From Escherichia coli (GTDB taxonomy: Bacteria; Pseudomonadota; Gammaproteobacteria; Enterobacterales; Enterobacteriaceae): a DNA stretch of 64,000 nt. A program made the position numbers and the translations under genes. Below the pieces are notes generated by a model. That model had not been told where the DNA came from and did not search any database. It was given only the letters and a program-made list of their open reading frames with translations. Numbering within the stretch: the stretch's first letter is position 1; every line of letters starts with the position of its first letter. The stretch lies in the NCBI RefSeq assembly GCF_051903065.1, contig NZ_CP178438.1, one strand, 5' to 3'. This document shows, piece by piece, positions 2,097 through 60,184 of the stretch.

Positions 2097-2272
2097 TTCA
2101 TTTCCTCTCATCCCATCCGGGGTGAGAGTCTTTTCCCCCGCCTTATGGCTCATGCATGCATCAAAAAAGATGTGAGCTTGATCAAAAACAAAAAATATTT
2201 CACTCGACAGGAGTATTTATATTGCGCCCGTTACGTGGGCTTCGACTGTAAATCAGAAAGGAGAAAACACCT

Positions 2273-2476
2273 ATGACGACCTACGATCGTAACCGTAACG
2301 CAATCACCACTGGCAGCCGTGTTATGGTTAGCGGCACCGGTCACACTGGCAAGATCCTGTCGATTGATACTGAAGGTCTGACCGCTGAGCAAATCCGCCG
2401 CGGAAAAACCGTAGTTGTTGAAGGTTGTGAAGAGAAACTGGCACCTCTGGACCTGATTCGTCTCGGCATGAACTAA
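2273..2476 (+). CDS. ydfZ: small protein YdfZ (putative selenium-binding)
   Basis: 67-aa [20 protein letters not shown]...; followed by hairpin terminator. Confidence 0.85.
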
Positions 2477-2483
2477 GCGTGTG

Positions 2484-2512
2484 AATGCCGCCGATGGCGG
2501 CATTGCTTTTTT
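2484..2512. terminator. Rho-independent terminator between convergent ydfZ and ydfI
   Basis: GC stem AATGCCGCC-GAT-GGCGGCATT followed by GCTTTTTT. Confidence 0.7.
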
Positions 2513-3971: not shown

Positions 3972-4059
3972 AACAATTCCTTAAATTTAAATATGGCAAG
4001 CTACATGTTTTGTTATATGAAGAAAAATCCCCTCTCCGGTAAGAGAAGGGATTGAGGAT

Positions 4060-5343: not shown

Positions 5344-5345
5344 AA
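5335..5345. repeat. att core copy at left prophage junction (attL-like)
   Basis: GAAATCCATAA identical to 34966-34976; lies at the ydfJ fragment junction. Confidence 0.7.
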
Positions 5346-5946
5346 TTCACAGGTGTTTTTTCCCATCCTGTGGTTTCCTTGGCGTTTTCTAGGTTTTTTC
5401 AGATAGTTGCATTTTTTAAAAAGCATCCTAAGTTCGATCTCAGTGTCTATCTGGGGCCTATTTCTGTCCCATATATGCCCCAAAAAAACTCCCCAACAGA
5501 TAAGTAGTTTTTTCATGGATTTATGCGTAAAATCAAGAACGGCTGGAAATCATTCAATACTCACACTATCGAAAAATTTACCAGCCAACCGCAGCACGTT
5601 CTTGCATAAGGCGTGTCTGCGTTTTTTCAACTATTCAGATACATCACTCCCATCACAGTCATTCCTCCGCATCAAAGGCATATAGGCTATATCACCTTGA
5701 TATTTTTCTTTTTCAGATAAAAACTGTTATCTATGTATACTTTTAAACCCAATCCGTGTAGAGTCTCTGCATAAGATAGTTTGCAGTTGCCGCTTCAGCT
5801 TGCGCCATAAACCGCCTGATTTTTGCTGCCACCTGCTAGCATTCCTGTATACCTGAAACGACAATGTTTATCTACGAACTTTAAAAACACCCAAGATAAA
5901 AATTGTCAACTATATCATATATAACACATTACTAATTCGAGGCTAT

Positions 5947-6060
5947 ATGAACAGCATACTGATAATCACTTCTCTCCTTATCATATTCAGCATTTTTAGT
6001 CATGCCCTAATAAAATTAGGGATTGGCATATCCAATAACCCAGACAAAACCGATGTATAA
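5947..6060 (+). CDS. possible small hydrophobic protein (37 aa, one predicted TM helix)
   Basis: ATG preceded by GAGG; [37 protein letters not shown]; no homology check possible. Confidence 0.3.
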
Positions 6061-6095
6061 GTCAACATATCCTGAATCAGACATACAATATCGCA

Positions 6096-6362
6096 ATGAA
6101 AATCAATAATATTTTAAGGAATATCTTCATGAAATCAAAAGACACCCTAAAGTGGTTCCCTGCGCAGCTTCCTGAAGTAAGAATTATCCTAGGGGATGCT
6201 GTAGTGGAAGTAGCAAAACAGGGAAGACCTATTAATACCAGAACATTGCTTGATTACATTGAAGGAAACATAAAGAAAAAATCATGGCTGGATAACAAAG
6301 AATTATTACAAACAGCGATATCAGTTCTTAAAGACAACCAAAATTTAAATGGTAAAATGTAA
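6096..6362 (+). CDS. ydfK: prophage cold-shock-induced protein YdfK (YnaE paralog); true start may be internal Met at 6129
   Basis: 88-aa ORF containing MKSKDTLKWFPAQLPEVRIILGDAVVEVAKQGRP... Confidence 0.8.
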   Translation: MKINNILRNIFMKSKDTLKWFPAQLPEVRIILGDAVVEVAKQGRPINTRTLLDYIEGNIKKKSWLDNKELLQTAISVLKDNQNLNGKM

Positions 6363-6679
6363 TATAATAAACTTACTTTTTTATCATTTTTCCACTTTAA
6401 CAACATTTTTCTCCACTTTTCCACGTCCAAACAACTTGAAATCTGGTTAAAATAACACGCAACACTATTCTTCTTCCTTGAGTCCGCCCGGAACTCGAAA
6501 AACAAACCGAGTTAAAGCCATTTTTCACAAAATCGATTTTGGGTCTCACCAAAAATTACGGGGTTGCATACGCATTCGTTTATTTTCGAACGTGTACATA
6601 CAAATATGCACAAAAATAATCATAATTATTTTCTGAGATGCATTATGATATGAACACCAATTTCGAATAGAGTCTCACT

Positions 6680-7270
6680 ATGTCTCGAATTTTTGCTTAC
6701 TGTCGGATATCAACGCTGGATCAGACCACCGAAAATCAACGCCGGGAAATCGAAAGTGCAGGTTTTAAAATCAAACCTCAGCAAATAATCGAAGAACACA
6801 TTAGCGGCTCAGCAGCAACCAGTGAGCGTCCTGGTTTTAACCGGTTGCTTGCTCGCCTGAAATGTGGTGATCAATTGATTGTGACAAAACTGGATCGCCT
6901 TGGTTGTAATGCAATGGATATCAGGAAAACAGTGGAACAACTGACCGAAACAGGTATCAGAGTGCATTGCTTAGCATTGGGTGGCATTGACCTGACCAGT
7001 CCAACAGGAAAAATGATGATGCAAGTAATTTCAGCAGTCGCTGAATTTGAACGAGACCTTTTACTTGAACGCACTCATTCCGGGATAGTAAGAGCCCGCG
7101 GCGCAGGGAAACGTTTTGGTCGACCACCTGTGTTAAATGAAGAACAGAAACAGGTGGTATTCGAACGAATTAAGTCAGGTGTAAGTATAAGTGCCATTGC
7201 CCGGGAATTCAAAACCTCGCGGCAAACCATTTTAAGAGCCAAAGCAAAACTTCAGACACCTGACATATAA
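6680..7270 (+). CDS. pinQ: serine-recombinase DNA invertase Pin
   Basis: 196-aa [23 protein letters not shown]... (resolvase/invertase N-terminal catalytic Ser motif) with C-terminal HTH. Confidence 0.9.
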
Positions 7271-11465: not shown

Positions 11466-14446
<2,981 letters not shown>

Positions 14447-16082: not shown

Positions 16083-16233
16083 ACCATAACGTCCGGCTTC
16101 TCTCACTCCTGAGCCGGACTGCATTGGTTTAATAAAAACCATCAACAATTGTGATTTAGATATTCGGAACCATTCAAATATAACAAAACCCCGTAAAAAC
16201 GAGGTTTATGGATAAATTTTATTATTGAATACA

Positions 16234-16407
16234 TCAGATTAAATTAATCTTGACATCATAGCTTTCAAGACCCGTCATTTTTTCCCGTGCGGTAAACTGA
16301 ATACTGGTAACTTCTTTCCCGGTCTTTTTCTTAAGTTCAATAATTTTTTTTGTTATATATTCAGAAATATCTGCTTCTGCTTTTGTTTTTAAGTTTTCAA
16401 TATTCAT
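16234..16407 (-). CDS. gnsB: GnsB (suppressor of secG/fabA phenotypes), 57 aa
   Basis: Hand translation of minus strand: MNIENLKTKAEADISEYITKKIIELKKKTGKEVTSIQFTAREKMTGLESYDVKINLI; not in supplied ORF list (below length cut-off). Confidence 0.8.
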   Translation of the reverse strand: MNIENLKTKAEADISEYITKKIIELKKKTGKEVTSIQFTAREKMTGLESYDVKINLI

Positions 16408-16578
16408 CATTTCCTCTTTTAGTCTGTTATGACTTTCCAGTTACACAGTAAGTCGATTATATGGTGCAAACGTGTAAAAGATAAGATGAAACATCGCAAT
16501 AATCAACATACGATAGTCTAAATTTTACACAAACAGACAAAGAGAATTTTCCTGAATTATCAATGCAATAGCATCAAA

Positions 16579-16809
16579 TCAACTCAAGAGCCTTATTGCT
16601 GCTTCCAGAATTTCTTCTGAAGTAACATGTCGATCCGCGGCTACATAAATGACTTTATGATCTCCGGTCAGAGATGGAAACCCTGCGGCCATTACAGTAA
16701 GGTGTGTTTTTTCGCCATTTGGATATTCACGCATGATGGTGTTAACTCCAGTCATCGCTGGCACTACCACTGCTGGTTCAGAGTTAAAAAAAACTATGAT
16801 TTTTTTCAT
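16579..16809 (-). CDS. ynfN: prophage small protein YnfN
   Basis: ORF 16579-16851; likely start at MKKIIVFFNSEPAVVVP... Confidence 0.65.
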   Translation of the reverse strand: MKKIIVFFNSEPAVVVPAMTGVNTIMREYPNGEKTHLTVMAAGFPSLTGDHKVIYVAADRHVTSEEILEAAIRLLS

Positions 16810-17080
16810 GATGTTACCGTAGTATGTGAGTATCCATCGAATAGACACCAAGCAAAAAAGCTCCCGAAGGAGCCTTCATTTTCACTTTTTTAAATCCAAC
16901 GACAGACGGCTGGCATTTAAGTATTGTGAAATATTATCAAATGTAATCATCATTGATTTACAAAAGATACATTTTGCCCCGAAAGGATTCATGTCAGAAA
17001 CATCAAAAGATGATGTTCTATACTGGGAACCATGACAACACGGGCATCTAAAGTGAATATGGTTTGTAATATTGTCTACC

Positions 17081-17293
17081 TCAAAGCGCCACTACATGAA
17101 CAGCGGCAGGACCTTTAGGTCCGTTCTCAATACCAAATTCAACTTCCTGATTCTCAGTTAATGTTTTGAAATCGTTGCTCTGAATTGCTGAGAAATGGAC
17201 AAACACATCTTTGCTGCCATCTTTCGGCGTGATGAAACCAAAACCTTTTTCAGGGTTAAACCATTTCACTAAACCAGTCATTTTGTTAGACAT
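17081..17293 (-). CDS. cspI: cold shock protein CspI (CspA family)
   Basis: 70-aa [26 protein letters not shown]... cold-shock domain RNP motifs. Confidence 0.9.
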
Positions 17294-17655
17294 AATTATT
17301 ACCTTTTGAAGAAATTAGCCCTTGGGCAGAATGGTCCGAAAAAAAATATCAGAGAGAAAAACCAACAAGGAAATCTCAAGAGGTACAAATAATAAAATTA
17401 TAACAATGACTGCTTCAGATAAATTTGTAACAAACCAGAACACCATTAACGCATGATTAACCACCCATAGCAAGGATTACTTTTGTAAAGAAAAACACAG
17501 CAATGAAAGAATAGCTTTATTTATTAATAAAACGTGTCATTCTGATTAAGACCTTTTATCTTACCCTTAAGATTTCAGGAATTTTGGCTCATGGAAGAGT
17601 CCTTTTTATTTAAATTTTACATTCCGCGATGTAAATGTTCCGATTTAATATTACC

Positions 17656-18679
<1,024 letters not shown>

Positions 18680-18683
<4 letters not shown>

Positions 18684-18991
18684 AGATATTTATGATGAGG
18701 ACGCTCGTGCTTATTGGCAGGATTTTCAATCTTAAAGGAGTACTGATGCTGCAGATAAGACTCAACTTTTTCTGACAATTTTTCTGCTACTTCCAGGAAG
18801 ACTTGCCGGACGCTCCTTCTGGCTGCTGCCTCATAAAACTCCAGCGCAGCTCCTTCAACACGGTCCATGGCGACATCCAGGTCAAAAATTTCACCGTCAA
18901 AGCGTTCTTTGTCCTGTAAGGCTACAGTTACCGTAACTTTATTCTCAAAATTACGGACTCCTTTCACAACCAGTTCATAGTCTTGAGTCAT
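18680..18991 (-). CDS. ydfR: prophage protein YdfR
   Basis: 103-aa ORF between holin and lysozyme genes. Confidence 0.7.
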
Positions 18992-18995
18992 TGGA

Positions 18996-19211
18996 TTACT
19001 CTCCTCTCGCAGCCTTACGCCTGTCTTCTTTAATCTTGAAATAAAGATTTGTCAGATACGTCAGCAGGCAAAAAACCAGGCTACCCAGCACACCGATTGC
19101 AGCCCACTGTGACGGAGTTACTTTATCGAGTAACTGCAATGCCCAGAAACCAGCATTACCCGCCGATGTGCCATAGGCAACACCTGTTGTTAACTTATCC
19201 ATTGATTTCAT
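18996..19211 (-). CDS. essQ: holin (S-like)
   Basis: ORF 18996-19286; likely start [28 protein letters not shown]... with TM segment. Confidence 0.75.
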
Positions 19212-19429
19212 ATCCTCACCCCGATGTACACGGATGGTGCAATATGTTTGAAAAGATCGGAGTCTACGGGGTAGTTTTGACAGCACACGTTGTTCTCAAC
19301 GGCGCTAAAAAACATACACATTAAAAATGTGGGTAATTATTTTGAAAGAAAATCATATATAAAATAATAATACGAGAAATGTTTTCATATTTAGTGTACT
19401 GTATACGGCCATTTATACAGGAAATGCCT

Positions 19430-19600
19430 ATGTCAGAACGTAAAGACTCAAAATCACGCCGTAATTATCTCGTTAAATGTTCCTGCCCAAACTGCACCCA
19501 AGAGTCAGAACACAGTTTTTCAAGAGTACAAAAAGGTGCCCTTTTGATCTGCCCTCATTGCAACAAAGTATTCCAGACAAATCTTAAAGCTGTAGCCTGA
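19430..19600 (+). CDS. small zinc-ribbon protein (56 aa, CxxC...CxxC); possibly the K-12 small protein YnfU
   Basis: ATG at 19430 with AGGA upstream; MSERKDSKSRRNYLVKCSCPNCTQESEHSFSRVQKGALLICPHCNKVFQTNLKAVA. Confidence 0.55.
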   Translation: MSERKDSKSRRNYLVKCSCPNCTQESEHSFSRVQKGALLICPHCNKVFQTNLKAVA

Positions 19601-19963
19601 TTGATTTTATTAGTAACAAGTATTTTTTATATTTTAATAATATATTTAAAGCAGATAATAAAAAACCCGCCTGAGCGGGTTTGAGATTGTGGTGCTTTTT
19701 GTGGGAGTCATCCACTTACGCACTTTGTTTTGCGATGCCAGCAGTTAGCTTCTGCTGTGAAACTATTCATGCAGCAAACCTGCACTTCACCACAATGGTT
19801 AGCATACTTTTCCTGATTAAGATTTTGCCAAATATGCTGGCCATTGTTTCATGTATTGGACCTCCTTACTTTTTATTAAAGAGATCCAATATTCACTACT
19901 CTGTCCGTATCTCTACTCAGGCATCAGCCTTCTTCGTTATCGTATACAGACGAGCGATGAATT

Positions 19964-20179
19964 TTAATCAGTAATGATGACATTTACTGCTGCAGGACCT
20001 TTAGCACCACTCTCTATAGAGAAGGTAACCTTTTGACCTTCAAATAAGGTTCGATAATTATCATTCTGAATCGCAGAAAAATGCACAAACACATCTTTAC
20101 TACCATCAACAGGAGAAATAAAGCCGAAACCTTTATCAGCGTTAAACCATTTTACTAAACCAGTCATTTTATTTGACAT
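19964..20179 (-). CDS. cspB: cold shock protein CspB
   Basis: 71-aa [26 protein letters not shown]... Confidence 0.9.
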
Positions 20180-20489
20180 TCTACATTCCTTAACTTGAGC
20201 CTTTCGGCATAAATGGTTTGCATAACAGAAACGACTTCGTACTTAATTGGAGAGACTCAAAGAAGGAATAAGTGAATAACACCTGAAATGAGAACTGCTT
20301 TAGTAAACTACTTCGTATATCGTCTGTTCTTCAAACCGACGCAGTCATTAACTCATAGTTGAACATATGAAGCAATGTTTATTTTAGACATCCAGCCACC
20401 TTCAATCCTATCAAAAAAGTAGTTTTCTCCAGGAACGTGTGTATGGTGCACCAGGTTATCAGTATTAAGGAGTTTTTCTGTCCCCTAAA

Positions 20490-20690
20490 ATGACAGGAAT
20501 TGTCAAAAACTTTGACGGCAAAAGCGGCAAGGGTCTTATCACCCCATCCGATGGTCGTATCGATGTCCAGCTTCATGTTTCAGCGCTCAATCTCCGCGAT
20601 GCAGAAGAAATTACCACCGGATTACGCGTGGAATTTTACCGGATAAATGGTCTGCGTGGCCCTTCAGCTGCCAATGTTTACCTTTCATGA
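20490..20690 (+). CDS. cspF: cold shock protein CspF (start may lie slightly upstream at a non-ATG codon)
   Basis: 66-aa [39 protein letters not shown]... Confidence 0.8.
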
Positions 20691-20744
20691 GCTATATTAA
20701 AGCTTTAATTTCAGGCCCCATCGGATCACACATGGAGAGTTTTT

Positions 20745-20834
20745 ATGAATAACCCCGTCTGTCTTGATGACTGGTTGATTGGCTTTAAAATCTTATGCTG
20801 TACTTTGGCCGTAATAGCTCTGCTAATAATATAA
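20745..20834 (+). CDS. possible tiny hydrophobic protein (29 aa)
   Basis: GGAGAG 6 nt upstream of ATG; [29 protein letters not shown]. Confidence 0.3.
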
Positions 20835-20983
20835 TAAGCAGACTCATTGTGTTTAGGGACATTGTACTGGAAGAAAACATTTTAAACATCAGGCAAATAA
20901 CCAAGTCACCAGCTAAATAATAAGTTAACAGACATGAGTCCCGGGATGAGATTCAACATTACCATTGCCCCATTTAAAGCACA

Positions 20984-21015
20984 AAACCCGCTCATCAGCG
21001 GGTTTTCTACTTTTT
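20984..21015. terminator. bidirectional hairpin terminator between cspF and quuQ
   Basis: AAAACCCGCTCATCAGCGGGTTTT stem-loop flanked by T/A runs on both strands. Confidence 0.6.
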
Positions 21016-21111
21016 CTTAACGTCGGGTATACAAAGCCCATCGTTGAAAAAATTTTATCCATATTTTTTGAAAAATGCAAACATCATGTCGCCATCTTCA
21101 GCAAAAATCAT

Positions 21112-21864
21112 TTATCTCGTCACCTTCCTCAATTGCGCTTCCGCGTATGCTTCTTCCTGCCAGCACTTTGTTACCAGTTTACCAATGACGTCCGCATACC
21201 CCTTATACCACTGATAATCGGTCAGGTCTGGTACCAGCTTCTGGACATGACGTCGTGCCAGCGTGGTCGGTAAACGACTAAACCGGTTTCCATTACAACG
21301 CCCACAAATCTTATATACCGGTACGCCATGAAACCGGGTTCTTTTTTCATCCAGAACAATCCCTTTACCCTTACACCCTCTGCACGCTGTGCTGGCTTCG
21401 CCCTTACCATGGCAATGCTGACATAGTTCCTTCACCCATTCTTCCTTGATTACAGATTCCCCGCGTCTGTAGTGTTTCACCACTTCGCGCAATACATTAT
21501 AAAATCCCGTACCTGAACAATGCTCACAGCGAGCCTTACTTGCCGCAGACCTGGAGTAATCAGCAAAGGCAAAACTCACGAGGTAAGGAATAATCTGTAA
21601 CCGGATTTCTTCACTCAATTTGTTCAATGTCGGGTTATCCAGTGCCATCGCGTAATTTAGCAGGCCTTCAATCGCAAACTGAGGGTCCTGAACACCAACT
21701 TTTGCCAGAAATAAGGCCAACCCAAGTGGTGCTTTCGACTGCACCATCCCCTGCGCTGCCATTACATCCGTAATTGTTAAACAACCGGTGCCTGTCGCTG
21801 GAGCGTCATCGCTCAATTTTGGAGATTTTGGGGAGTAATATTTTGGTAAGGCTTCAAGGTTCAT
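21112..21864 (-). CDS. quuQ: lambdoid late-gene antiterminator Q-like
   Basis: ORF 21112-21894; Cys-rich zinc-binding motifs (CxxC); upstream of lysis cassette. Confidence 0.8.
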   Translation of the reverse strand: MNLEALPKYYSPKSPKLSDDAPATGTGCLTITDVMAAQGMVQSKAPLGLALFLAKVGVQDPQFAIEGLLNYAMALDNPTLNKLSEEIRLQIIPYLVSFAFADYSRSAASKARCEHCSGTGFYNVLREVVKHYRRGESVIKEEWVKELCQHCHGKGEASTACRGCKGKGIVLDEKRTRFHGVPVYKICGRCNGNRFSRLPTTLARRHVQKLVPDLTDYQWYKGYADVIGKLVTKCWQEEAYAEAQLRKVTR

Positions 21865-21877
21865 GCTCGTTCTCCAC

Positions 21878-22966
21878 TTACGCCAGTACGCCAATTGCCA
21901 GCGCGCGATCGATAAAACGAAATATCAGCTCCAGTTGGGAGCCATACTTATCTTCAAATGCCACTGTATCCGTATGCAGCTCGTTGTGATGCTTTCTGCA
22001 CAAAGGCAACACAAAGAGATCATGTGCTTTTGTTCCCATTCCGCCCTGCCCGTGACCAATCAGATGATGCGGATCGTCGGCTGGCATACCGCAGCAAGCA
22101 CACGGCTGTGTCTTAACCCAACGTGTGTATTTCTCCTTAACCCAGCGGCGACGTTTAGGCAGCTTCATGAAAGATTCCGGAGACTCTGGATCAACGGTGA
22201 TGCTTACCACCGTCTTTTCCTGTGGTGATTTTTGTTGCTGGTGGGCGTAAGGCAACGGTGCAAGATTTTTTGTGCGTTGTTTCAATATGCTGGTGGCGGT
22301 CTGCTCTCCCGGTACGATGTCGCTTTCGCGGTACACCGAGCAGATTTTTTCCGCTGGTAATCCCAGCGAACGACGCGATACAGCCTCAGGTAGTGCATCC
22401 ACCACCTGATTGCAGACCGCCCACCAGGATAATTCAGCCAAAGATAATTCCCGCTCCTGCGTACCGCTTATTGCGTGACGGATGACGTCAATCACCCATG
22501 CTGTCAGATTTTGTTGAGCAAGCAGCTCCAGTGATTCCGATGTCTGGTCACGCAGTTGGTTGTCGCAGTGCCAGCACAACACCATTGCGCCGGTACCATA
22601 ACGGTGAATGACTGTTTCAGTGTGATGGTAATCGCCATTAGGCCACTGGCAGGATGTAACATGACGTAATAGCCAGTCGGACAATGCGCCAACGCCGCCA
22701 GCAGCACGAATCACCCGTTCGTTACTAAAAAACGGCAGCAATGTTTTGTCTTCCGCCAGCGGCTGGCGAACGGCAGGAACGACTCCGGATGGCAGATTAC
22801 GCATGCTTTTTGGTTCCGGTTCCACCAGCACTCGAGGATTATGAAATATCTGTATGGATTCACGGCCCGGCTTAAGGACCACCAGCCCAAGCTCAGGCAC
22901 CAGAACAGGTCTAAGTAATACCCGCACGTTACCTCCAGATCCGTTGCTGGAAAGTGCGGGACGCAC
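21878..22966 (-). CDS. ydfU: prophage protein YdfU with C-terminal HNH-type motif
   Basis: 362-aa ORF; C-terminal CACCGMPADDPHHLIGHGQGGMGTKAHD...CRKHHNELH. Confidence 0.75.
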   Translation of the reverse strand: MRPALSSNGSGGNVRVLLRPVLVPELGLVVLKPGRESIQIFHNPRVLVEPEPKSMRNLPSGVVPAVRQPLAEDKTLLPFFSNERVIRAAGGVGALSDWLLRHVTSCQWPNGDYHHTETVIHRYGTGAMVLCWHCDNQLRDQTSESLELLAQQNLTAWVIDVIRHAISGTQERELSLAELSWWAVCNQVVDALPEAVSRRSLGLPAEKICSVYRESDIVPGEQTATSILKQRTKNLAPLPYAHQQQKSPQEKTVVSITVDPESPESFMKLPKRRRWVKEKYTRWVKTQPCACCGMPADDPHHLIGHGQGGMGTKAHDLFVLPLCRKHHNELHTDTVAFEDKYGSQLELIFRFIDRALAIGVLA

Positions 22967-23207
22967 GTGGTGGGCGTTCGGAATAAGGCAGCCTGACAGA
23001 GATTATCCAGTGCCGATAGTCGAGACTGAGAGCTTTCTTAACCTCGAACCCGCGCCTGCGGTAAGAATGAATCAGCCATTCGGCCTGTTCTGCAGTGCAT
23101 GGAGGGTGCTGGAACCATTCAGACTTGAATGCGTGAGAATACCGCCCGTGCGTGCAGGCAAGAACGGGCGAATTATCAGAATTGTAATATTTTGCGTTGC
23201 GTGCCAT
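22929..23207 (-). CDS. hypothetical prophage protein (92 aa)
   Basis: ORF with protein-like composition overlapping predicted ydfU start by ~38 nt; no family assigned. Confidence 0.4.
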   Translation of the reverse strand: MARNAKYYNSDNSPVLACTHGRYSHAFKSEWFQHPPCTAEQAEWLIHSYRRRGFEVKKALSLDYRHWIISVRLPYSERPPRASRTFQQRIWR

Positions 23208-23273
23208 CGGTTTTCTCCGGTGGCACGGTGTTACTCAGCGGGAGTTCAGCCCCGCGCAAGATTGTAGATGAGT

Positions 23274-23525
23274 TTATTCTCCTGAAAAAGCAGAAAAGCC
23301 AGCTTTTATTCCGATCTCTTTCAATGCCTGTAATGAAGTGACAAACTCACCTTCGCGCAAGATAAATCCGTCCGTGACCCGAGCATCCACAAAATTAATT
23401 AACGCAGCCCCATTCTTTCGCAAACACATAATGCGGTAATGACTAACAAGATTTCCATTTTCAACGCACACAGCATAGAGGCCATCTTCACAAAAAATTT
23501 TACGCAGTTCTTCGATGTTCATCAT
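23274..23525 (-). CDS. rem: prophage protein Rem
   Basis: 83-aa ORF MMNIEELRKIFCEDGLYAVCVENGN... Confidence 0.8.
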   Translation of the reverse strand: MMNIEELRKIFCEDGLYAVCVENGNLVSHYRIMCLRKNGAALINFVDARVTDGFILREGEFVTSLQALKEIGIKAGFSAFSGE

Positions 23526-23640
23526 CAGAATCCTTCCGGATAATTAGCTCTCCCCTTTAAGGGACCATCCCTCTTATCCCTGCGCGCTACTTAAGTATTT
23601 TTGATTCTATTCCGGCACCGTCCAGAACTTCAAACGCGTT

Positions 23641-23673
23641 GAAAATAAAAACAAAAACCCGCCGAAGCGGGTT
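23641..23673 (-). terminator. Rho-independent terminator downstream of relBE-hokD
   Basis: Stem AACCCGCTTCGGCGGGTT followed by T-rich run on minus strand. Confidence 0.65.
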
Positions 23674-23741
23674 AAGTGCGGGTGCGTTGAGGATGCCTGC
23701 CACATCAGAGGTGGCGAGGGATTTCTCCCCCGCCGGGTCTC

Positions 23742-23897
23742 TTACTCCTCAGGTTCGTAAGCTGTGAAGACAGCGACCTCCGTCTGGCCGGTTCGGATTC
23801 GTACCTCGCAGAGGTCTTTCCTCGTTACCAGTGCCGTCACTATGACGGTTAAACAGATGACGATCAGGGCGATTAACATCGCCTTTTGCTGCTTCAT
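23742..23897 (-). CDS. hokD: Hok-family small membrane toxin (RelF)
   Basis: Hand translation: MKQQKAMLIALIVICLTVIVTALVTRKDLCEVRIRTGQTEVAVFTAYEPEE (51 aa); not in supplied ORF list. Confidence 0.85.
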   Translation of the reverse strand: MKQQKAMLIALIVICLTVIVTALVTRKDLCEVRIRTGQTEVAVFTAYEPEE

Positions 23898-23968
23898 AGC
23901 CTGCTTCTCCTGTCAACGCAAAGCAGAAGTGTCACCTTCGGTGCGAAACAGAGATGTCATGCTTTGGT

Positions 23969-24256
23969 TCAGAGAATGCGTTTGACCGCCTCGCTATATA
24001 CTTCCGAGCGTTCTCTTTTCCCAACAGAAATCACGAAAACGACAACTTTCTCGTCTATAACCTGGTATACAAGGCGATAGCCTGAAGACCGGAGCTTAAT
24101 CTTGTAACAATCAGGCATACCACGGAGCTTGTTTGCTTCAATCCGGGGTGACTCAAGTACTTCAACCAGCTTCTTTTTCAACTGTTCACGTACCGTCGAG
24201 CCCAGCTTTCGCCATTCCTTTAGTGCCCGCTCGTCAAAATCCAGAAAATACGCCAT
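23969..24256 (-). CDS. relE: RelE mRNA interferase toxin
   Basis: 95-aa ORF MAYFLDFDERALKEWRKLGSTVREQLKKKL... Confidence 0.9.
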   Translation of the reverse strand: MAYFLDFDERALKEWRKLGSTVREQLKKKLVEVLESPRIEANKLRGMPDCYKIKLRSSGYRLVYQVIDEKVVVFVISVGKRERSEVYSEAVKRIL

Positions 24257-24495
24257 CAGAGTTCATCCAGCGTCACACGTACTGGCTTAGGATTACGAAG
24301 CCGTTCTTTCACTATCTCCACAAGTTCAGCATCTTCATCACTCAGGAGTGTCTGTTTGAACGGCAAGCGTTCATTGTCAGCGATATACTCGAGCATGAGA
24401 CGAAGCGCTTCAGAAGGAGTTACACCCATTTTTTCAAGCGCGGCGTAAGAACGCGCTTTAAGTTCATCGTCAATACGCAGGTTAATGCTACCCAT
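24256..24495 (-). CDS. relB: RelB antitoxin
   Basis: 79-aa ORF MGSINLRIDDELKARSYA...; overlaps relE start. Confidence 0.9.
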   Translation of the reverse strand: MGSINLRIDDELKARSYAALEKMGVTPSEALRLMLEYIADNERLPFKQTLLSDEDAELVEIVKERLRNPKPVRVTLDEL

Positions 24496-24504
24496 GTCTT
24501 ACAC

Positions 24505-24535
24505 CTCTTGTAATTACAAATGTCATTACAAGTAT
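24505..24535. promoter_or_regulatory. relBE operator-like inverted repeats
   Basis: CTTGTAATTACAAATGTCATTACAAG: palindromic TTGTAAT/ATTACAA elements just upstream of relB. Confidence 0.55.
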
Positions 24536-24825
24536 CGCACTACAACATGCTTAGGGCAAGTCACGAAGGAAGTCAGAAAGTAGTCGTAAGAACGGTGATC
24601 ACTGTCCGCTTTGTGCCAGGAGCAGCCATTGCTAAGTCCATCCTGTATTGTGCAGGTCAGCTCGTTTTTAAAGAGTCCGGCCATCATCTTACTGGTACAG
24701 ACACCATATACTTTGTGACGGTCAGGCTACATATGCACAACTCAACTTATTCATCTATTTTTTGCTTTAGCATGTCAGTGTTGCTTTCTCGTCGGCGGGT
24801 GAGCGGTGACCTGACCTGTCGATAA
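24520..24825 (+). CDS. ydfV: prophage protein YdfV
   Basis: 101-aa ORF divergent from relB. Confidence 0.6.
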   Translation: MSLQVSHYNMLRASHEGSQKVVVRTVITVRFVPGAAIAKSILYCAGQLVFKESGHHLTGTDTIYFVTVRLHMHNSTYSSIFCFSMSVLLSRRRVSGDLTCR

Positions 24826-24977
24826 AGGAACGTAACACGTTTTATGCAACACCCGCATGCGGCAGAAAATTATTGCCGAACGTTTACCCCTGTCAACAAG
24901 CTTTACTTTCTGAGGCGCGCCAGCCCGCGAGGAAAACAATCTGAACATCAAACAATTAATGACACAAGAAATACGAT

Positions 24978-25004
24978 TAAAGATTTTTTTGTACATGCCG
25001 ATAG
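24978..25004 (+). promoter_or_regulatory. sigma-28 (FliA) type promoter upstream of flxA
   Basis: TAAAGATT-N11-GCCGATAG versus consensus TAAAGTTT-N11-GCCGATAA, 24 bp upstream of flxA ATG. Confidence 0.7.
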
Positions 25005-25027
25005 TGCTTTTTTAAAAGGAGAAATCT

Positions 25028-25360
25028 ATGTCTGTCACAATTCAGGGAAATACCTCAACCGTTATTTCAAACAACTCCGCCCCGGAAGGAACATCAGAAA
25101 TAGCCAAAATCACAAGACAAATTCAGGTGCTGACTGAAAAGCTTGGGAAAATCTCATCGGAAGAGGGGATGACGACACAGCAGAAAAAAGAAATGGCTGC
25201 ATTGGTACAGAAGCAAATTGAAAGCCTCTGGGCTCAACTGGAGCAGTTGTTAAGGCAGCAGGCAGAGAAAAAGAATGAAGACGCGACAGTTCAGCCTGAT
25301 AAAAAAGAAGAGAAAAAAGACGATACAAATACCGCTGGCACCATTGATATTTACGTCTAA
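25028..25360 (+). CDS. flxA: FliA-regulated protein FlxA
   Basis: 110-aa ORF MSVTIQGNTSTVISNNSAPEGTSEIAKITRQIQ... Confidence 0.85.
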   Translation: MSVTIQGNTSTVISNNSAPEGTSEIAKITRQIQVLTEKLGKISSEEGMTTQQKKEMAALVQKQIESLWAQLEQLLRQQAEKKNEDATVQPDKKEEKKDDTNTAGTIDIYV

Positions 25361-25374
25361 GTGACAGCCGTATT

Positions 25375-25397
25375 GTGGCCCTCATCGGGCCACTTTT
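25375..25397 (+). terminator. Rho-independent terminator after flxA
   Basis: GTGGCCC-TCATC-GGGCCAC followed by TTTT. Confidence 0.7.
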
Positions 25398-25796
25398 CGC
25401 CATCAGCCTTTTCTTTAAAGACATATTATCTTTGTATCATTTCTGATAGTTAACATTACAAGATATAAGTAATGGACGCACTCCCAATTAGTCTATTTAA
25501 ATCGCCACGAGTTTAACTGACAACCCATGATCAATTATGAATTGCAACTATTTCTGTAGTCACTTTTGTGGGGACAGTCCACAAAACTGCCAACTTCCGC
25601 TTCTTGCTCTTAGCGGACATTAGCATAGGCTATTTACCATAACGCCTCATTACGCACACCGCCCAGACTGACTCAGCGCGTTTCTGGCATATCCCCGGTA
25701 AAACAAGTAACAAACCACCCGAAAATGAACACCAGAAACGCGACTTAAGAATCTACCCTATGAATGGATATGCACTCAACCGAATCGATCTTGGTT

Positions 25797-27110
25797 TCAA
25801 TCTTTTTTATCGGGATCAGGCTTCTTTTTAGGTAACTTCGGGGGCTTAACTTGCTGATGACTTTGCGTTCGGCGCGTAAGCCAGGGATGGTCAGCTTTAG
25901 GTTTAACATAGTATTTTGAGCGTAAATCAATACGGGCATTATCCACTCGTTCATGGACACTCTTTTCATCATCCGGTGGTATAGGCTCCGGGCCATCAAC
26001 ATACTTTTCCCAGCCCAGCGCTTTCCCGTCATACAGAACGTTAATTTCACCGTCAAAGTTCTCGCATACAGTAACAACCGAATGCCTAAGTCGATATCCC
26101 CGGCCCTCACTGCGTACCTGAAACGCACTGCTTTTGTACTGGAAAGTGAGATTTTTAGACAGAACGCGCTTCGCCTGTAGGCTGAAGATATAACCCAGTT
26201 CCTCTTCAGAATGGTGCACATCAAGATGAGCATTATCAGTAGTACGAGGCGACGTAGCGAACCGGTTGTTATAGGCTTCAATAAAGGTCGGCAACCATGC
26301 ATTTGCTGTTTCAATATCACTGATATTCTGAAGCCGCATTTCTTTGACCAGCCTGTCCTGTAGTGTCTGATTGGCGCGCTCTACCCGCCCTTTTGCCTGC
26401 GGGCTGTTGGCATGGATTGGCTCGATGCCCAGTGTCTTTATCGCACGAGTGAACTGGGTCAGCTCACCTTCCCGCTCTGGGTTATTTACCCTGAATATAC
26501 TGTGTCTATCAGAGTAGAGAGCGAGCGGTACGCCATGATCATTAAGGTAACCCCGGAGGGTTTCCATGTAAGCCCGGGTTGTTTCAGCAGGCACAAAACG
26601 CAACGCCATCAACGCACTGGTGGCATCATCAATGAAAACGATCAGTGTACATCTGGGGCCTCGATTTTCAAACCAGTCATGAGATGAGCCATCAATCTGG
26701 ATCAGTTCACCGTAAGATGGTCGTCGCATGCGGCGTTGATATATACGGGCAATTTTACGACGGCGTTCACGCCATAACCCCTCTTCTATCATCCACTTTC
26801 TGAGAGTTTCAACGGATAAAGATAAACCGTGTATCTCGCGCAATTTTTCGCACGCAAACGTAGGTCCAAAATCAGCGTAACGGCCTTTGAGGAGTGAAAT
26901 TACTGTTGCTCTGAATTCAGTAGAAAAGGAATTATTAGGACGCTTTCCACGTCGGTGGGAAACCAGACCAGAAGGCCCTTCATTTCTATACCGTTGCACC
27001 AGACGTTTAACCTGCCGAATAGAAATGCCAATGCGTGCCGCAGCTTGTTCCTGAATAATCTGAAGTCGGTGGAGTTCCTTATGACTCATCGTAACAGTCT
27101 CTTTGATCAT
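25797..27110 (-). CDS. DDE transposase/integrase with N-terminal HTH and rve (retroviral-integrase-type) core; IS481/ISNCY-like, family not confirmed
   Basis: 437-aa ORF; motifs ...IQIDGSSHDWF..., ...VFIDDATS..., ...HANSPQAKGRVERANQTLQDRL...; element ends not identified. Confidence 0.7.
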   Translation of the reverse strand: MIKETVTMSHKELHRLQIIQEQAAARIGISIRQVKRLVQRYRNEGPSGLVSHRRGKRPNNSFSTEFRATVISLLKGRYADFGPTFACEKLREIHGLSLSVETLRKWMIEEGLWRERRRKIARIYQRRMRRPSYGELIQIDGSSHDWFENRGPRCTLIVFIDDATSALMALRFVPAETTRAYMETLRGYLNDHGVPLALYSDRHSIFRVNNPEREGELTQFTRAIKTLGIEPIHANSPQAKGRVERANQTLQDRLVKEMRLQNISDIETANAWLPTFIEAYNNRFATSPRTTDNAHLDVHHSEEELGYIFSLQAKRVLSKNLTFQYKSSAFQVRSEGRGYRLRHSVVTVCENFDGEINVLYDGKALGWEKYVDGPEPIPPDDEKSVHERVDNARIDLRSKYYVKPKADHPWLTRRTQSHQQVKPPKLPKKKPDPDKKD

Positions 27111-27444
27111 GAAAAATCCCCCAGAGAATTGTCTGGGGACATTTTAGAATGGTTCAAAGGGGACATTACAGCTTGGTGTTAACAATAGCCTGCTTCTCCG
27201 TGCCTTTCGGCACGTAAGAGGCTAACCTACATGTGTCTAGCATGAAATTGGCCTCAGATTAATGTTAAGCGTCTTGCAGGACGCGTAATGTTAACTGGGG
27301 CTTTTCTCTATCTGCCGTTGGTGTCCATGCCCGAGGCAGATAGCCTCAAGCACCCGCAGTCATTCTACTTAACTAAGATTTCCCCGCAAACCGTTTTTGT
27401 CCAGCACAGTAAATATCCAACTAAACCAATGGAGTTCGCTGTAT

Positions 27445-27624
27445 TTACCGCCAGTATTCAATGCACATGACCGCCATGAACACCCCTAAAAAAAGGGCAT
27501 TTATATATCCAAATATTAATATCAAAACATCAACTTTTTCCATATACCTTGCTGTGAAGATGATGGGCATACATGATGCGAACAACCAGAACGCAACAAA
27601 CAAAAACTGCAATGCGTTTTTCAT
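27445..27624 (-). CDS. small membrane protein, 59 aa, two predicted TM helices, unknown function
   Basis: AGGAGG 4 nt upstream of ATG; MKNALQFLFVAFWLFASCMPIIFTARYMEKVDVLILIFGYINALFLGVFMAVMCIEYWR. Confidence 0.5.
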   Translation of the reverse strand: MKNALQFLFVAFWLFASCMPIIFTARYMEKVDVLILIFGYINALFLGVFMAVMCIEYWR

Positions 27625-27878
27625 TATTCCTCCTACAATCAATGTGCAATTACATTTAAACACACCTCAATTTGGCCGGACATATAAATATCTAAACCAG
27701 AAAAAATCACTTACATAGCGTTACAAACTCTTTAGTCTAAAGGTTCATCGTAAAACATTCCCCATACTTATCAGTCCGTTCCGCGCCAGGTAGCTCATTG
27801 CCTTATCTGGCAACCTGTAATCAGGTTTCCGCTTTTTCAGTTGGCTGGTCGTTTAACCGACATAGTTAATCCATTAAT

Positions 27879-28166
27879 CTAGTTGCCGGATGTTGGTGGA
27901 TTTTCGCGTTTTAGTTGTTCATAAAAGTGCACAGCTTTAACCAGTTCTTCTGATGTAACTGGGACTGGTGAGGCAGTGAATAAGGCCTGAATTTGATAGT
28001 TCGGCCTGTCGTTACAATCCTCTTTTTTCGGTACATATTTCCAGTCACCAGACCACTACTTCCCCTGAAAGTCCGTAACGCCTTTTTTCACGTAGCGATA
28101 TCGCCATGCCACTGGTTTTGCTTGCCCCGCCGTTTCATGCCCTTCCTGATAATTAATCTCGCTCAT
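27879..28166 (-). pseudogene. small prophage ORF (95 codons) interrupted by one in-frame TAG at 28056-28058
   Basis: Hand translation MSEINYQEGHETAGQAKPVAWRYRYVKKGVTDFQGK-TAG-WSGDWKYVPKKEDCNDRPNYQIQALFTASPVPVTSEELVKAVHFYEQLKRENPPTSGN. Confidence 0.45.
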
Positions 28167-28354
28167 TCATCGCCCCACTCATCACAATATGCTTCGACCG
28201 GAGTTTTTCCCGCTTCATAGTCATCACGCTAGGATTCGACATCAGCAGCACTTCCACCGCGTAACTCACCATAGTCCATTAATAGTTCATCCCGCTCTTC
28301 AAAACTGATGTTATATTTAGCTGAACAAAAATCAGCCACTTTGTTCTTCCTCAT
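28163..28354 (-). pseudogene. small prophage ORF (63 codons) interrupted by one in-frame TAG at 28229-28231; stop overlaps next ORF start (ATGA)
   Basis: Hand translation MRKNKVADFCSAKYNISFEERDELLMDYGELRGGSAADVES-TAG-RDDYEAGKTPVEAYCDEWGDE. Confidence 0.45.
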
Positions 28355-28403
28355 CGTCTTTTATTTCGTGGTATGAGTAATTGCAGTAGTTAAAGAAAAT
28401 TTC

Positions 28404-28514
28404 TTATGCTCCGTCATGAATTTCCTCAGGTGTTGCGTCATCGTCCACTTCGAATACATCCTCAAAATCTCCACCAGCTATTCCCGTTTCAATAATAATT
28501 TTGAACTTTCGCAT
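28404..28514 (-). CDS. possible small acidic ORF (36 aa) at head of degenerate small-gene cluster
   Basis: MRKFKIIIETGIAGGDFEDVFEVDDDATPEEIHDGA; may itself be a fragment. Confidence 0.25.
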   Translation of the reverse strand: MRKFKIIIETGIAGGDFEDVFEVDDDATPEEIHDGA

Positions 28515-28776
28515 TTCACTACCGCCCTTTCGGGCGGCCTCCTGATGTTCTGAGGGTGCAGAAATCCATCCGGTTAAGGATTAAATTTTATTTACAGAAC
28601 TGAATTTAATTATTCAGATATACGTATCTGTAGCCTTACGAATCTACTCACTGGATGCCTCTTTCATAAAAATAATCCAGTGGGTTTTATCGTTTTTTCC
28701 CTGTTCGTTGACAGATAACAGGTTTTCTGTCTGTCAGTGCCAGAATCTGGCTTACCGGTATTTGCGTTTCATTCCA

Positions 28777-29133
28777 TTAAAAAATCAGAACGCCGTGCGG
28801 CCTCAACACCCGAAAGGCTTCTTTAAATCTCTGTCGCGAATCATCACGCCAGGCATCTTTATTCAGCCGTCCATATTTCTTTCCCATCCAGGCGTTATCA
28901 CCAACACTCTCAAGATGCGGAGGGTCTAATACAACCATCGAAAAAGATGCGTCTGCAAATGATAATGCACGAAAATCTGCGATAATGTCAGGGCTGATAA
29001 TCAAGCGTCTCCCATTGCGTAATGTGTATCCTTCTTTTCTGATATCGCTGAATATCGCCCGTTCGTCAGACTTATCGAACCAGAACATGCGGCTGCCACA
29101 GCACATATCAAGAATGGTTGCCGGTGCACTCAC
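28777..29133 (-). CDS. SAM-dependent methyltransferase-like protein, probably truncated (118 aa)
   Basis: Motif I-like LDMCCGSRM and motif IV-like VVLDPPH; ORF too short for a complete DNA methyltransferase. Confidence 0.5.
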   Translation of the reverse strand: MSAPATILDMCCGSRMFWFDKSDERAIFSDIRKEGYTLRNGRRLIISPDIIADFRALSFADASFSMVVLDPPHLESVGDNAWMGKKYGRLNKDAWRDDSRQRFKEAFRVLRPHGVLIF

Positions 29134-29552
29134 TGCGCCACGTCCTGAAAATTACCCTGATAGAAAGCCAGTATGCGCTGCATAACTTCGCTCTTCCGGC
29201 ACTCGCGACAGATTATGTTTAGGCGACTGTCGTAGCGACGTATTTCTCCGTCAGGTGATGACCAGATAAGGTCCGGATCAACCACAGCAGGTTTCTTCAC
29301 CTTTGCCCTCGAGAGTTTTTTGCGGGCGTTTTGCCAGTCCTTACGCGCCTGTTCAGAGGGGAATAACCCGTAGCCGGAGTTGTATACATCGCCACTGGCT
29401 ACCAGCTCTCTGGCAAGAACGCTCATCAGATATCTAGTCGCACCTGTTTTAGCTTCCAGTTGCCGTAACGTCTCACGGCCGCTCTGGCGCACGAGTTCCA
29501 CCACCTGCCATTTAATTTTTTCCCGCTCTTCTTGTGTAAAAACTTTTGCCAC
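29130..29552 (-). CDS. hypothetical protein (140 aa), translationally coupled to downstream methyltransferase-like gene
   Basis: Stop overlaps next start (ATGA at 29130-29133); HTH-like segment TLRQLEAKTGATRYLMSVLARELV. Confidence 0.5.
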   Translation of the reverse strand: MAKVFTQEEREKIKWQVVELVRQSGRETLRQLEAKTGATRYLMSVLARELVASGDVYNSGYGLFPSEQARKDWQNARKKLSRAKVKKPAVVDPDLIWSSPDGEIRRYDSRLNIICRECRKSEVMQRILAFYQGNFQDVAQ

Positions 29553-29592
29553 AAGTCCCCCTTAAAATTACCTCATGACCTGAAATCAACAC

Positions 29593-30558
29593 TTATCCTC
29601 TGAAACCAGGCGGAATTTCTGTATCCGGTTCAGAAATATGATTAACACAACGCTGTACAGGTGAACGTCCCAGGCGGATGACCAGTTCGTCCCATTTTTC
29701 GAGGAGCTTTGACGGGCTCATGATGTTTTTTACCCAGAATGGATCTCGCTGAACCCGACCAAACATTTCGCAAATTTGTCTGTGGCTTCTGCCATCCAGC
29801 ATCCGCATTGTGCGCACGTCATTGGCCCAGGCAGTCCAGTTAGGCTCTTTTGGTCGCATGATCTCGCCATCATCACTGGCTGCCTGTTCGTAGAGACCCA
29901 CGATCCGCCCCCAGATCCACTGCGCACACGCCAAATCCTCCCTGCTACCCCACTGGCGTTTTTTCGCACTAAACACAACCGCGTCGGAGTTCCGGGTTAA
30001 AAAATCCTGTTCAGTCGTCTGCGGGTCCGGTTGCGAAGCTTCCGGACGAAAAGTGTTTTTATTCTCTGTAGTAATCTCTGTTGTATTCTCTGTAAGATCA
30101 TCAGGCCATTTTGACCCGATGACATTGGGTCGTTTTGAACCAATGGAGCGTTTCATTTTGACCTCTTCCATCGTGTCATTTTGACCTGATGGAGCGGCGC
30201 ATTTTGAACCGATGGATTCGCTCAATTTGCCACCATCTAAAAGCTCGCTCCCATAGTTGATCGTGTAGAAATTGGTCATATCGCGCTTTGATTTATTGAG
30301 CTTTTCACAACGCAAAAGCCCCAGCGTTTTCAGACTTGCAAACGCGCGCTTTAACGTTGACTCTGACCAGAATGGGAACTGTTCCAGCCATTGTTCCGTT
30401 GTGTTATAAATCCAGCGAACACCATCACATTCCATGCCGGAGTTGGTATCTCTCAACCAGTAGTGCAGTTGTTGCAAAACAATGGCTTCGTTTAAGCCAA
30501 TTTTCATTGCCAGCTGCGTGTTTATAACCAGTGGGCGTTCAGCAAAAAGAAGGCTCAT
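29593..30558 (-). CDS. lambda O-like replication initiation protein
   Basis: ORF 29593-30612 (start probably Met at 30558); C-terminal region ...WANDVRTMRMLDGRSHRQICEMFG... resembles lambda gpO; iterons inside gene. Confidence 0.75.
   Translation of the reverse strand: MSLLFAERPLVINTQLAMKIGLNEAIVLQQLHYWLRDTNSGMECDGVRWIYNTTEQWLEQFPFWSESTLKRAFASLKTLGLLRCEKLNKSKRDMTNFYTINYGSELLDGGKLSESIGSKCAAPSGQNDTMEEVKMKRSIGSKRPNVIGSKWPDDLTENTTEITTENKNTFRPEASQPDPQTTEQDFLTRNSDAVVFSAKKRQWGSREDLACAQWIWGRIVGLYEQAASDDGEIMRPKEPNWTAWANDVRTMRMLDGRSHRQICEMFGRVQRDPFWVKNIMSPSKLLEKWDELVIRLGRSPVQRCVNHISEPDTEIPPGFRG
30105..30240. repeat. iteron array (5-6 copies, ~23-24 bp period) inside O-like gene: candidate replication origin
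   Basis: Repeated CATTTTGACC/CGTTTTGAACC...GATGGA units at ~30107, 30131, 30154, 30177, 30201, 30224; flanked by AT-rich TCTCTGT repeats. Confidence 0.7.
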
Positions 30559-31060
30559 AATTCCATCCAGCTTTTTGTTGGTATTGCTGTCGATACGCAA
30601 GTTTGAAAGCAATTGCTTTTTCTATAAGTTCGTCAGTTTCACGATCCACTACGGCAGGATCAGCAAAAAGCAGTCCGGACTCCACCACATCGCCATATTC
30701 TTTGTTTAACCCGGCGATCATGCACGTGATGCTTTTTCCGTCAGTAATTTCACGATACAACCTGAAATCATTAATCCGGATAGCCTCCATAATTGCAGGC
30801 ACTAGCGCCGTGAACTTTTCACGCTTATCCCTGGTGTCGATAGCCTTCCAGCGTTCAAATATCTTCACTCGATTAACGCCAAGCGCTCGCTGATCAATCG
30901 CGCCACCTTCATATGTGACACGCTGAACATCGATGTTCGGGCGCTCTTTCAAAGCCCAGAATGCTTCAGTGATTAATATCGTCGCCTGCTCCTGTGTCAT
31001 TCCTGGTCGACATATCCAGGCATCCAGAGCCTCACGAGCCTGTTCAGGAGTGATTTTCAT
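30539..31060 (-). CDS. YdaT-like protein (cII-position regulator analog)
   Basis: 173-aa ORF downstream of cro-like dicC; ...DKREKFTALVPAIMEAI... resembles Rac YdaT by memory. Confidence 0.55.
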   Translation of the reverse strand: MKITPEQAREALDAWICRPGMTQEQATILITEAFWALKERPNIDVQRVTYEGGAIDQRALGVNRVKIFERWKAIDTRDKREKFTALVPAIMEAIRINDFRLYREITDGKSITCMIAGLNKEYGDVVESGLLFADPAVVDRETDELIEKAIAFKLAYRQQYQQKAGWNYEPSFC

Positions 31061-31274
31061 TGTTCAACCGCCCCGCCCGCTTCGTCTTACGATATTCATC
31101 ATAAACTTTGGGATCATACTGAAGCTCCCCGCCAGATGCCTCCTGTAGACGCATCGCGCGACCTTCGGGAACTAAATCCCCTTTCCAGCTATAAAGCGAA
31201 GCCAAACGAATACCTGCTGCTTGTGCAAGTTTTGTTTTTGAACCGAAATACAAAAGAGCGTCAGTTTTAAGCAT
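31044..31274 (-). CDS. dicC: Cro-like repressor DicC
   Basis: 76-aa ORF MLKTDALLYFGSKTKLAQAAGIRLASLYSWKG...; divergent from dicA. Confidence 0.85.
   Translation of the reverse strand: MLKTDALLYFGSKTKLAQAAGIRLASLYSWKGDLVPEGRAMRLQEASGGELQYDPKVYDEYRKTKRAGRLNNENHS

Positions 31275-58588: not shown

Positions 58589-60184
<1,596 letters not shown>

Follow-up and report, generated by a model that had tools for sequence, protein, structure and literature searches.

The 64-kb stretch of Escherichia coli DNA that we analysed, referred to in the following as the window, carries the flxA gene on its plus strand (positions 25028–25360). This gene begins with an ATG codon, encodes a protein of 110 amino acids that belongs to the Pfam family PF14282 (FlxA-like), and is annotated as flxA. 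It is flanked on one side by ydfV, relB, relE, hokD, rem, ydfU, the Q-type antiterminator gene ydfT, csp genes and lysis genes, and on the other side by ydfW, an ISNCY-type transposase gene, a methyltransferase gene, the gene for a phage O protein, cro/cI-like regulatory genes, dicB, and genes for an exonuclease, an excisionase and an integrase. A preliminary description of this DNA had placed flxA within a prophage, and the phage genes present on both of its sides leave this assignment intact. Positions 12000–34981 of the window are 99.6% identical over 93% of their length to Escherichia phage PhiR42_1 (PV340562; host ECOR13), which likewise possesses the ydfV-flxA module, there with the promoter sequence found in K-12. 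The element hosting flxA is a Qin-type lambdoid prophage and a near-complete relative of PhiR42_1; the window begins within this prophage, whose integrase end lies near position 34,980. While the Qin prophage of K-12 is a deleted remnant, the prophage in the window has kept replication, immunity, integrase and structural genes, with those for the O protein, cro/cI and integrase/excisionase among them, and is far more complete. The two elements also differ just downstream of flxA/ydfW, where the window carries an intact open reading frame for 437 amino acids (25797–27110, minus strand) with helix-turn-helix and integrase-core (rve_3) domains. Its counterpart in the best-matching strain has been annotated as a transposase of the ISNCY family; the gene is present in PhiR42_1 and absent at that place in K-12 DH1.

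The region 24500–25500 is 100% identical to the corresponding DNA of E. coli 2013C-4991 and matches K-12 in 1000 of 1001 bases (99.9%). Colinearity of the whole window with strain 2013C-4991 had to be rejected upon direct comparison, as this strain differs outside positions 16117–31172; the window consequently stems from a different strain.

A sigma-28-type site precedes flxA on the plus strand. It consists of the −35 element TAAAGATT (24978–24985), an 11-nt spacer with the sequence TTTTTGTACAT (24986–24996), and the −10 element GCCGATAG (24997–25004). Each of the two boxes deviates at a single position from the corresponding part of the FliA consensus, TAAAGTTT-N11-GCCGATAA, so that 14 of the 16 consensus positions (seven of eight in either block) are matched, and the CGATA core of the −10 element is intact. 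The preliminary description had regarded TAAAGATT-N11-GCCGATAG as a close match to the FliA consensus situated 24 bp upstream of flxA. A careful recount of the spacer and of the −10 element yields exactly 11 nt and seven of eight matches, and the distance is correct when counted from base to base; 23 nt intervene between the end of the −10 box at position 25004 and the ATG codon at position 25028. Located within these 23 nt is the Shine-Dalgarno sequence AAGGAG (25016–25021), 6 nt 5′ of the start codon, which is kept in the homologues of the gene. Given the spacing that is customary in sigma-28 promoters, transcription of flxA is predicted to start at positions 25011–25014 on the plus strand, about 7–10 nt 3′ of the −10 box, and the leader of the flxA mRNA should therefore be about 14–17 nt long. 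For a mutational analysis of the −10 box, GCCGATAG would be altered to GCCTCTAG.

The only sizeable open reading frame on the plus strand downstream of the sigma-28 site is flxA itself. A terminator-like hairpin, GTGGCCC-TCATC-GGGCCAC followed by TTTT, occupies positions 25375–25397 of the plus strand and begins 15 nt past the flxA stop codon; it possesses a GC-rich stem of 7 bp with a calculated stability of −18.3 kcal/mol (z −3.0). A simple terminator scan missed this hairpin because its T run comprises just 4 bases. All genes of the early rightward operon of the phage (cro, O … Q) are encoded on the minus strand and flxA is encoded on the plus strand; since it is opposed to this operon and is followed by a hairpin of its own, flxA has the appearance of a self-contained single-gene unit.

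How strongly does the DNA sequence by itself point to a FliA-dependent promoter? When both strands of the 64-kb window were searched, the site in front of flxA was the sole match to the FliA consensus, both at up to two and at up to three mismatches, and the numbers of matches expected by chance are 0.04 (4 in 100 shuffles) and 0.65, respectively. We also derived a weight matrix from the 51 other motifs that Fitzgerald et al. (2014; PMC4183435, Table 2) give for FliA ChIP-seq sites, leaving out the flxA motif itself. A scan with this matrix, the check that had been proposed for the site, ranked it first in the window with a score of 19.07 bits, followed by a runner-up with 14.1 bits, and this score was equalled in 4 out of 200 shuffled windows (2%). 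A second matrix built from 17 well-regulated promoters left the ranking unchanged. Statistical support for the flxA promoter from the sequence alone is thus moderate; the case is carried by the position of the site directly before a gene, by published data, and by the conservation of the site across species.

The sigma-28 promoter of flxA is in itself already known, and genome-wide studies have re-confirmed it. Ide and Kutsukake reportedly identified flxA in 1997 as a FliA-dependent gene of the Qin prophage and determined its transcription start site by primer extension. In K-12, flxA is associated with a FliA ChIP-seq peak (FAT score 16; motif TAAAGATTTTTTTGTGCATGCCGATAGT), and its expression reached a value of 280 in the motile strain MG1655 versus 2 in the fliA deletion strain, a difference flagged as significant (Fitzgerald et al., 2014; PMC4183435). 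Zhao et al. (2007; PMC1935009) found expression of flxA (b1566, Qin prophage) decreased 28.4-fold in a fliA deletion strain and increased 8.2-fold 5 min after the induction of FliA. A genomic SELEX peak of the sigma-28 holoenzyme, with an intensity of 23.2, is positioned between ydfV and flxA (Shimada et al., 2017; PMC5493296). The statement that FliA control of flxA is known for K-12 is backed by these three studies.

The window and K-12 have the locus and the gene in common, with an identical protein (WP_001301033.1) in K-12 DH1 and in the best-matching strain, and both promoter boxes, the length of the spacer and the distance to the ATG codon are identical as well. The sole difference from K-12 DH1 in the promoter alignment is located in the spacer, where position 24993 is an A in the window and a G in K-12, and this exchange is the one base in which the 1001 positions compared above disagree. 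Among E. coli records, the 61-bp promoter region of the window (A) was found as an exact match in 31 of 1187, and the K-12 version (G) in 1105 of the 1190 records that have the region. The matrix scores of the two versions, 19.1 bits for A and 19.2 bits for G, predict no functional change, and we would thus expect the A version of the spacer to be as active as the G version. Binding of FliA and dependence on fliA were demonstrated by others for the K-12 promoter; for the window, the near-identical sequence leads us to anticipate the same behavior.

Against this background, one can ask if the site might be a chance match, decayed, or otherwise non-functional in this particular strain, with flxA being either silent or transcribed from elsewhere, for instance through read-through from ydfV or, upon induction, from phage promoters. 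Many FliA-bound sites are without regulatory output (Fitzgerald et al., 2014; PMC4183435), 2–4% of shuffled windows contain a comparable consensus match, and the spacer base at position 24993 is unlike that of K-12. The deviating spacer base, however, is a single position of low information content, and the K-12 flxA gene ranks among the most FliA-dependent genes measured (PMC4183435; PMC1935009). Furthermore, purifying selection clearly acts on the two boxes throughout the FlxA family, as detailed below, and a search of the flxA strand between positions 24200 and 25900 revealed no sigma-70-like promoter, and hence none 5′ of the gene. We therefore regard a non-functional site as highly improbable, although some read-through into flxA from ydfV, or from phage promoters upon induction, may take place.

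On the opposite strand, a near-consensus sigma-70-like promoter, TTGACA-16-AATAAT (11 of 12 positions), is present at positions 24869–24896, in the DNA that separates the flxA promoter from the end of ydfV. This site is directed antisense across ydfV towards relB, and its −35 part falls into the DNA segment shared with the flxA cassettes of Enterobacter. It is possibly a divergent promoter, or it might drive an antisense transcript or a long relBE transcript.

A different view of the locus would be that of a mixed class 2/3 promoter that directly requires or uses FlhDC in addition to FliA. Dual inputs of this type exist at fliAZY, fliLMNOPQR, flgMN and fliDST (PMC4183435), and one paper (PMC6551532) loosely counts flxA among the genes that FlhDC controls. 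Yet, the table of FlhD/FlhC binding sites determined by ChIP-seq lists no site near flxA (PMC4183435, Table 1), which indicates a pure class 3 promoter, and the dependence on fliA alone amounts to about 140-fold (PMC4183435). These data make a direct contribution of FlhDC so improbable as to be almost negligible. The segment 24978–25004 can be regarded, with a probability of roughly 95%, as a working FliA (sigma-28) class 3 promoter of flxA.

The canonical class 3 promoters of fliC, tar, motA, flgM, tsr and yhjH share the architecture TAAAG(T/A)TT-N11-GCCGATAA with the site in front of flxA. They score between 17.7 and 27.4 bits in the 51-site matrix, a range that includes the value of 19 bits obtained for flxA. 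Unlike these promoters, that of flxA is located in a prophage and outside of a flagellar gene cluster, and its −10 box ends with a G instead of an A. These features lend themselves to the following model. RNA polymerase containing FliA would recognize TAAAGATT as the −35 and GCCGATAG as the −10 element, set 11 nt apart, and transcription would begin a few bases 5′ of the AAGGAG sequence. A short, single-gene flxA mRNA would be produced that should end at the hairpin at positions 25375–25397. As the anti-sigma factor FlgM keeps FliA inactive until the hook-basal body is complete, flxA should be expressed late in flagellar assembly, alongside the flagellin and chemotaxis genes, and in motile cells only.

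To trace the ancestry of the promoter, we examined relatives of FlxA. An exhaustive protein search returned 48 cluster representatives and no more. Copies with 85% identity exist in other mobile contexts: one resides near icd in Enterobacter sp. HG048 (L004), two close copies of it on short contigs (L005 and L006) adjoin a phage integrase gene, and another (L007) adjoins genes for a holin and a lysozyme. Copies with 64–65% and 45% identity originate from metagenome contigs. Each of these mobile genes (85, 65, 64 and 45% protein identity) is preceded by a sigma-28-type site that ends 23–26 nt before the ATG codon. A matrix with a fixed spacer under-scored homologues with a 12-nt spacer, and we consequently used a two-block scan that allows for spacers of 10–13 nt; the spacers of the sigma-28 sites in the flxA homologues proved to be 11 or 12 nt long. 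In an alignment of seven diverged mobile copies, TAAA and G.CGATA are invariant within positions −50 to −23, and both the spacer and the upstream flank diverge.

The homology shared by flxA of the window with that of other mobile elements is confined to a block of about 87% DNA identity that spans the promoter and the gene (24865–25371, plus strand). In comparison with L007 the block starts at position 24865, and in comparison with L004 and L005 at positions 24889–24890; it ends at position 25371 in all three cases. The flanking genes differ among the window, the L004/L005 copies and the L007 copy. We conclude that flxA is a small promoter-plus-gene cassette that is carried by phage.

The more distant members of the FlxA family, with 26–35% identity, are encoded on chromosomes. 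They are positioned between gltX and a LysR-type gene at the yfeR position, and the locus continues with genes for an SBF-family transporter, a small protein of the QSregVF_b family (ypeB position) and DNA ligase. Flanked in the order gltX-flxA-like-yfeR-yfeH-ypeB-ligA, such genes are found in Enterobacter, Citrobacter, Kluyvera, Kosakonia, Pantoea, Erwinia and others. They share with the prophage gene the Pfam family, the layout of the protein and the distance of the promoter, but differ from it not only by their low protein identity but also by their fixed position, by a −35 element that mostly reads TCAAG instead of TAAAG, and by the lack of phage genes nearby.

We scanned one genome per species with an alignment of the chromosomal subclade as the query and obtained 39 flxA-like loci, 38 of the Enterobacterales type and one from the Burkholderiaceae. 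Represented are Lelliottia, Enterobacter, Citrobacter, Leclercia, Cedecea, Kosakonia, Buttiauxella, Pseudocitrobacter, Pluralibacter, Trabulsiella, Kluyvera, Phytobacter, Superficieibacter, Siccibacter, Pantoea, Mixta and Pseudescherichia. Added to these are single genomes labelled Klebsiella sp. and Escherichia sp., an unclassified Enterobacteriaceae isolate, and two metagenome-assembled genomes labelled only as Proteobacteria that carry the same locus. Nearly all 38 copies occupy the gltX-yfeR position. The motif TCAAG/TAAAG-N11-12-GCCGATA(A/T/C) is present 26–34 nt before a conserved MTTI start in each of the 38 loci, and it nearly always attains the best score on both strands of the entire 3–6 kb locus; among random 150-nt windows drawn from these chromosomal loci, 1.4% reach 12 bits. 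The metagenome-assembled Burkholderiaceae locus (L058), with a doubtful site 137 nt upstream of the gene, was left out of this statement on conservation.

The apparent absence of a promoter from four of the loci (L022, L042, L043 and L051) was an artefact of choosing the first ATG as the start codon, and the promoter was found in all four when the MTTI start was used. In L022, L023, L029, L031, L042 and L053, an in-frame ATG follows the −10 box of the sigma-28 site by about 9 nt and would add N-termini such as MARGI(R/K)M, MAKKKGSSM, MANKEFIM or MARKEIAM ahead of MTTI. As this early ATG would be located at or upstream of the predicted transcription start site, the longer open reading frames called there are probably over-extensions.

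In E. coli, the flxA unit is carried by about 1,184–1,202 of the 5,426 complete genomes (22%). A sensitive DNA search with the gene of Escherichia sp. ESNIH1 detected the chromosomal copy in just one of these 5,426 genomes, that of strain ST95-32 (NZ_CP043950.1; L062), where it is found at positions 4905–5246 in the order gltX-tRNA-flxA-like-LysR. The neighboring genes for the LysR-type regulator, the transporter and zipA are annotated as frameshifted at this locus, which suggests that the region either was acquired from another genus by recombination or was assembled incorrectly.

These distributions speak to the question of where the connection between flxA and the flagellar regulon was established. 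The promoter could have been born inside the prophage, with phage DNA drifting towards the FliA consensus and thereby newly linking a phage gene to the flagellar regulon. Such an origin would fit the confinement of flxA to Qin-type prophage DNA or its fragments in E. coli, and the absence of the chromosomal copy from 5425 of the 5426 complete genomes of this species at the sensitivity of blastn. It is difficult to reconcile, however, with the presence of the promoter at the same distance in all FlxA-family genes examined, including the 38 chromosomal ones from about 20 genera, as inheritance is a much more likely explanation than a separate origin of the promoter in each lineage. Moreover, the DNA that different mobile elements have in common consists of the promoter and the gene, and of nothing else. 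We therefore consider a birth of the promoter within the prophage as very unlikely. Since the promoter precedes every FlxA-family gene examined by 23–34 nt, the link to the regulon probably predates the prophage. In other words, the ancestor of the FlxA family was probably already controlled by sigma-28, so that the promoter would have been inherited together with the gene and the link would have come with the cassette rather than having been made in the prophage; this is a reading of compared sequences and gene contexts. The portrayal of flxA as a host regulon wired into a prophage consequently holds as a description of the locus, but not in the sense of an invention by the phage, as the promoter appears to be ancestral to the entire family, chromosomal copies included.

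A more specific scenario, which we favor with some reservation, is that flxA and its promoter go back to an ancient class 3 gene of the flagellar regulon of Enterobacterales, passed on vertically and residing at the gltX-yfeR position in at least 20 genera, that lambdoid phages captured a diverged version of it as a 0.5-kb cassette, and that the approximately 22% of E. coli strains possessing flxA have it only by way of a prophage. If this scenario is correct, FlxA has a conserved role in motility or in the late steps of flagellar assembly, and the phage gains by expressing flxA in motile hosts only.

With respect to its organization, flxA resembles the morons of lambdoid phages, for which bor and lom of lambda are examples: each is a small gene that is inserted between phage operons and equipped with a promoter of its own and a terminator-like hairpin. 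Like these, flxA is opposed to the adjoining phage transcription unit, and its cassette is common to otherwise different elements; unlike these, it is driven by an alternative sigma factor of the host and not by sigma-70. Of the characteristic traits of a moron, a location inside prophage DNA, an own promoter combined with a predicted terminator, and the occurrence as a discrete cassette in otherwise unrelated elements are found with flxA. It may accordingly be viewed as a self-contained passenger gene inserted between the replication genes and the gene for the Q antiterminator, and it illustrates clearly how a member of a host regulon can be carried by a phage along with its regulatory signal.

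The FlxA protein itself offers few clues as to its function. It matches PF14282 with 53.8 bits (cut-off 26.3; E value 2.3e-14) and is a member of PHROG 11044, which is labelled as having an unknown function; no NCBIfam model scored above its cut-off, and a profile search against the PDB returned only coiled-coil noise. An alignment of the family reveals an N-terminus rich in Ser and Thr, a helical core rich in Gln and Ala, and a conserved C-terminal tail, IDIY(V/I). AlphaFold predicts, with low confidence (pLDDT 62.8), a helical hairpin formed by helices 24–42 and 50–87 with disordered ends. Two giant proteins, P0131 (3361 amino acids) and P0147 (2729 amino acids), contain 17 and 7 repeats, respectively, that resemble residues 8–50 of FlxA, a segment comprising the Ser/Thr-rich N-terminal part and the start of the helix. 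The flxA gene is counted among the uncharacterised genes of K-12 (PMC11551758). Its apparently conserved control by sigma-28 argues for a role of FlxA linked to flagella or motility, even if the published studies recognize no evident one in the flagellum.

We found no paper on a family-wide conservation of sigma-28 promoters in front of FlxA genes; the search term “FlxA-like” yielded none, and flxA is absent from the papers on the evolution of FliA promoters. What our analysis adds to the searchable literature is the conservation of the sigma-28 promoter across genera, together with the synteny of the chromosomal locus. This comparative result is a modest one; it makes the search for the function of FlxA more pressing and leaves the classification of its promoter unchanged. 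The flxA promoter can furthermore serve as a positive control for the reading of promoters from raw sequence.

Two further observations concern FliA motifs and flxA promoters at other places. The sequence TAATATTTTGCGAGTTCACGCCGAAATA, present at positions 60283–60310 of the window (minus strand), is an exact copy of the motif that Fitzgerald et al. (2014) assigned by ChIP-seq of FliA to “pntA”. It scores 13.4 bits and is located 5′ of pntA (58589–60175, minus strand); in K-12, this motif is weak, with a FAT score of 1 and no regulation (PMC4183435). The flxA promoter also occurs in six plasmid places. One plasmid, the 88.6-kb resistance plasmid pCRST047 (NZ_AP045821.1; L061), carries at positions 1819–6757 a fragment of the Qin module that comprises a partial relE, relB and a partial ydfV, followed by flxA with its promoter region; this fragment is broken by genes for a BCCT transporter and a DUF2254 protein, after which come IS26 and mph(A)-mrx(A)-mphR(A).
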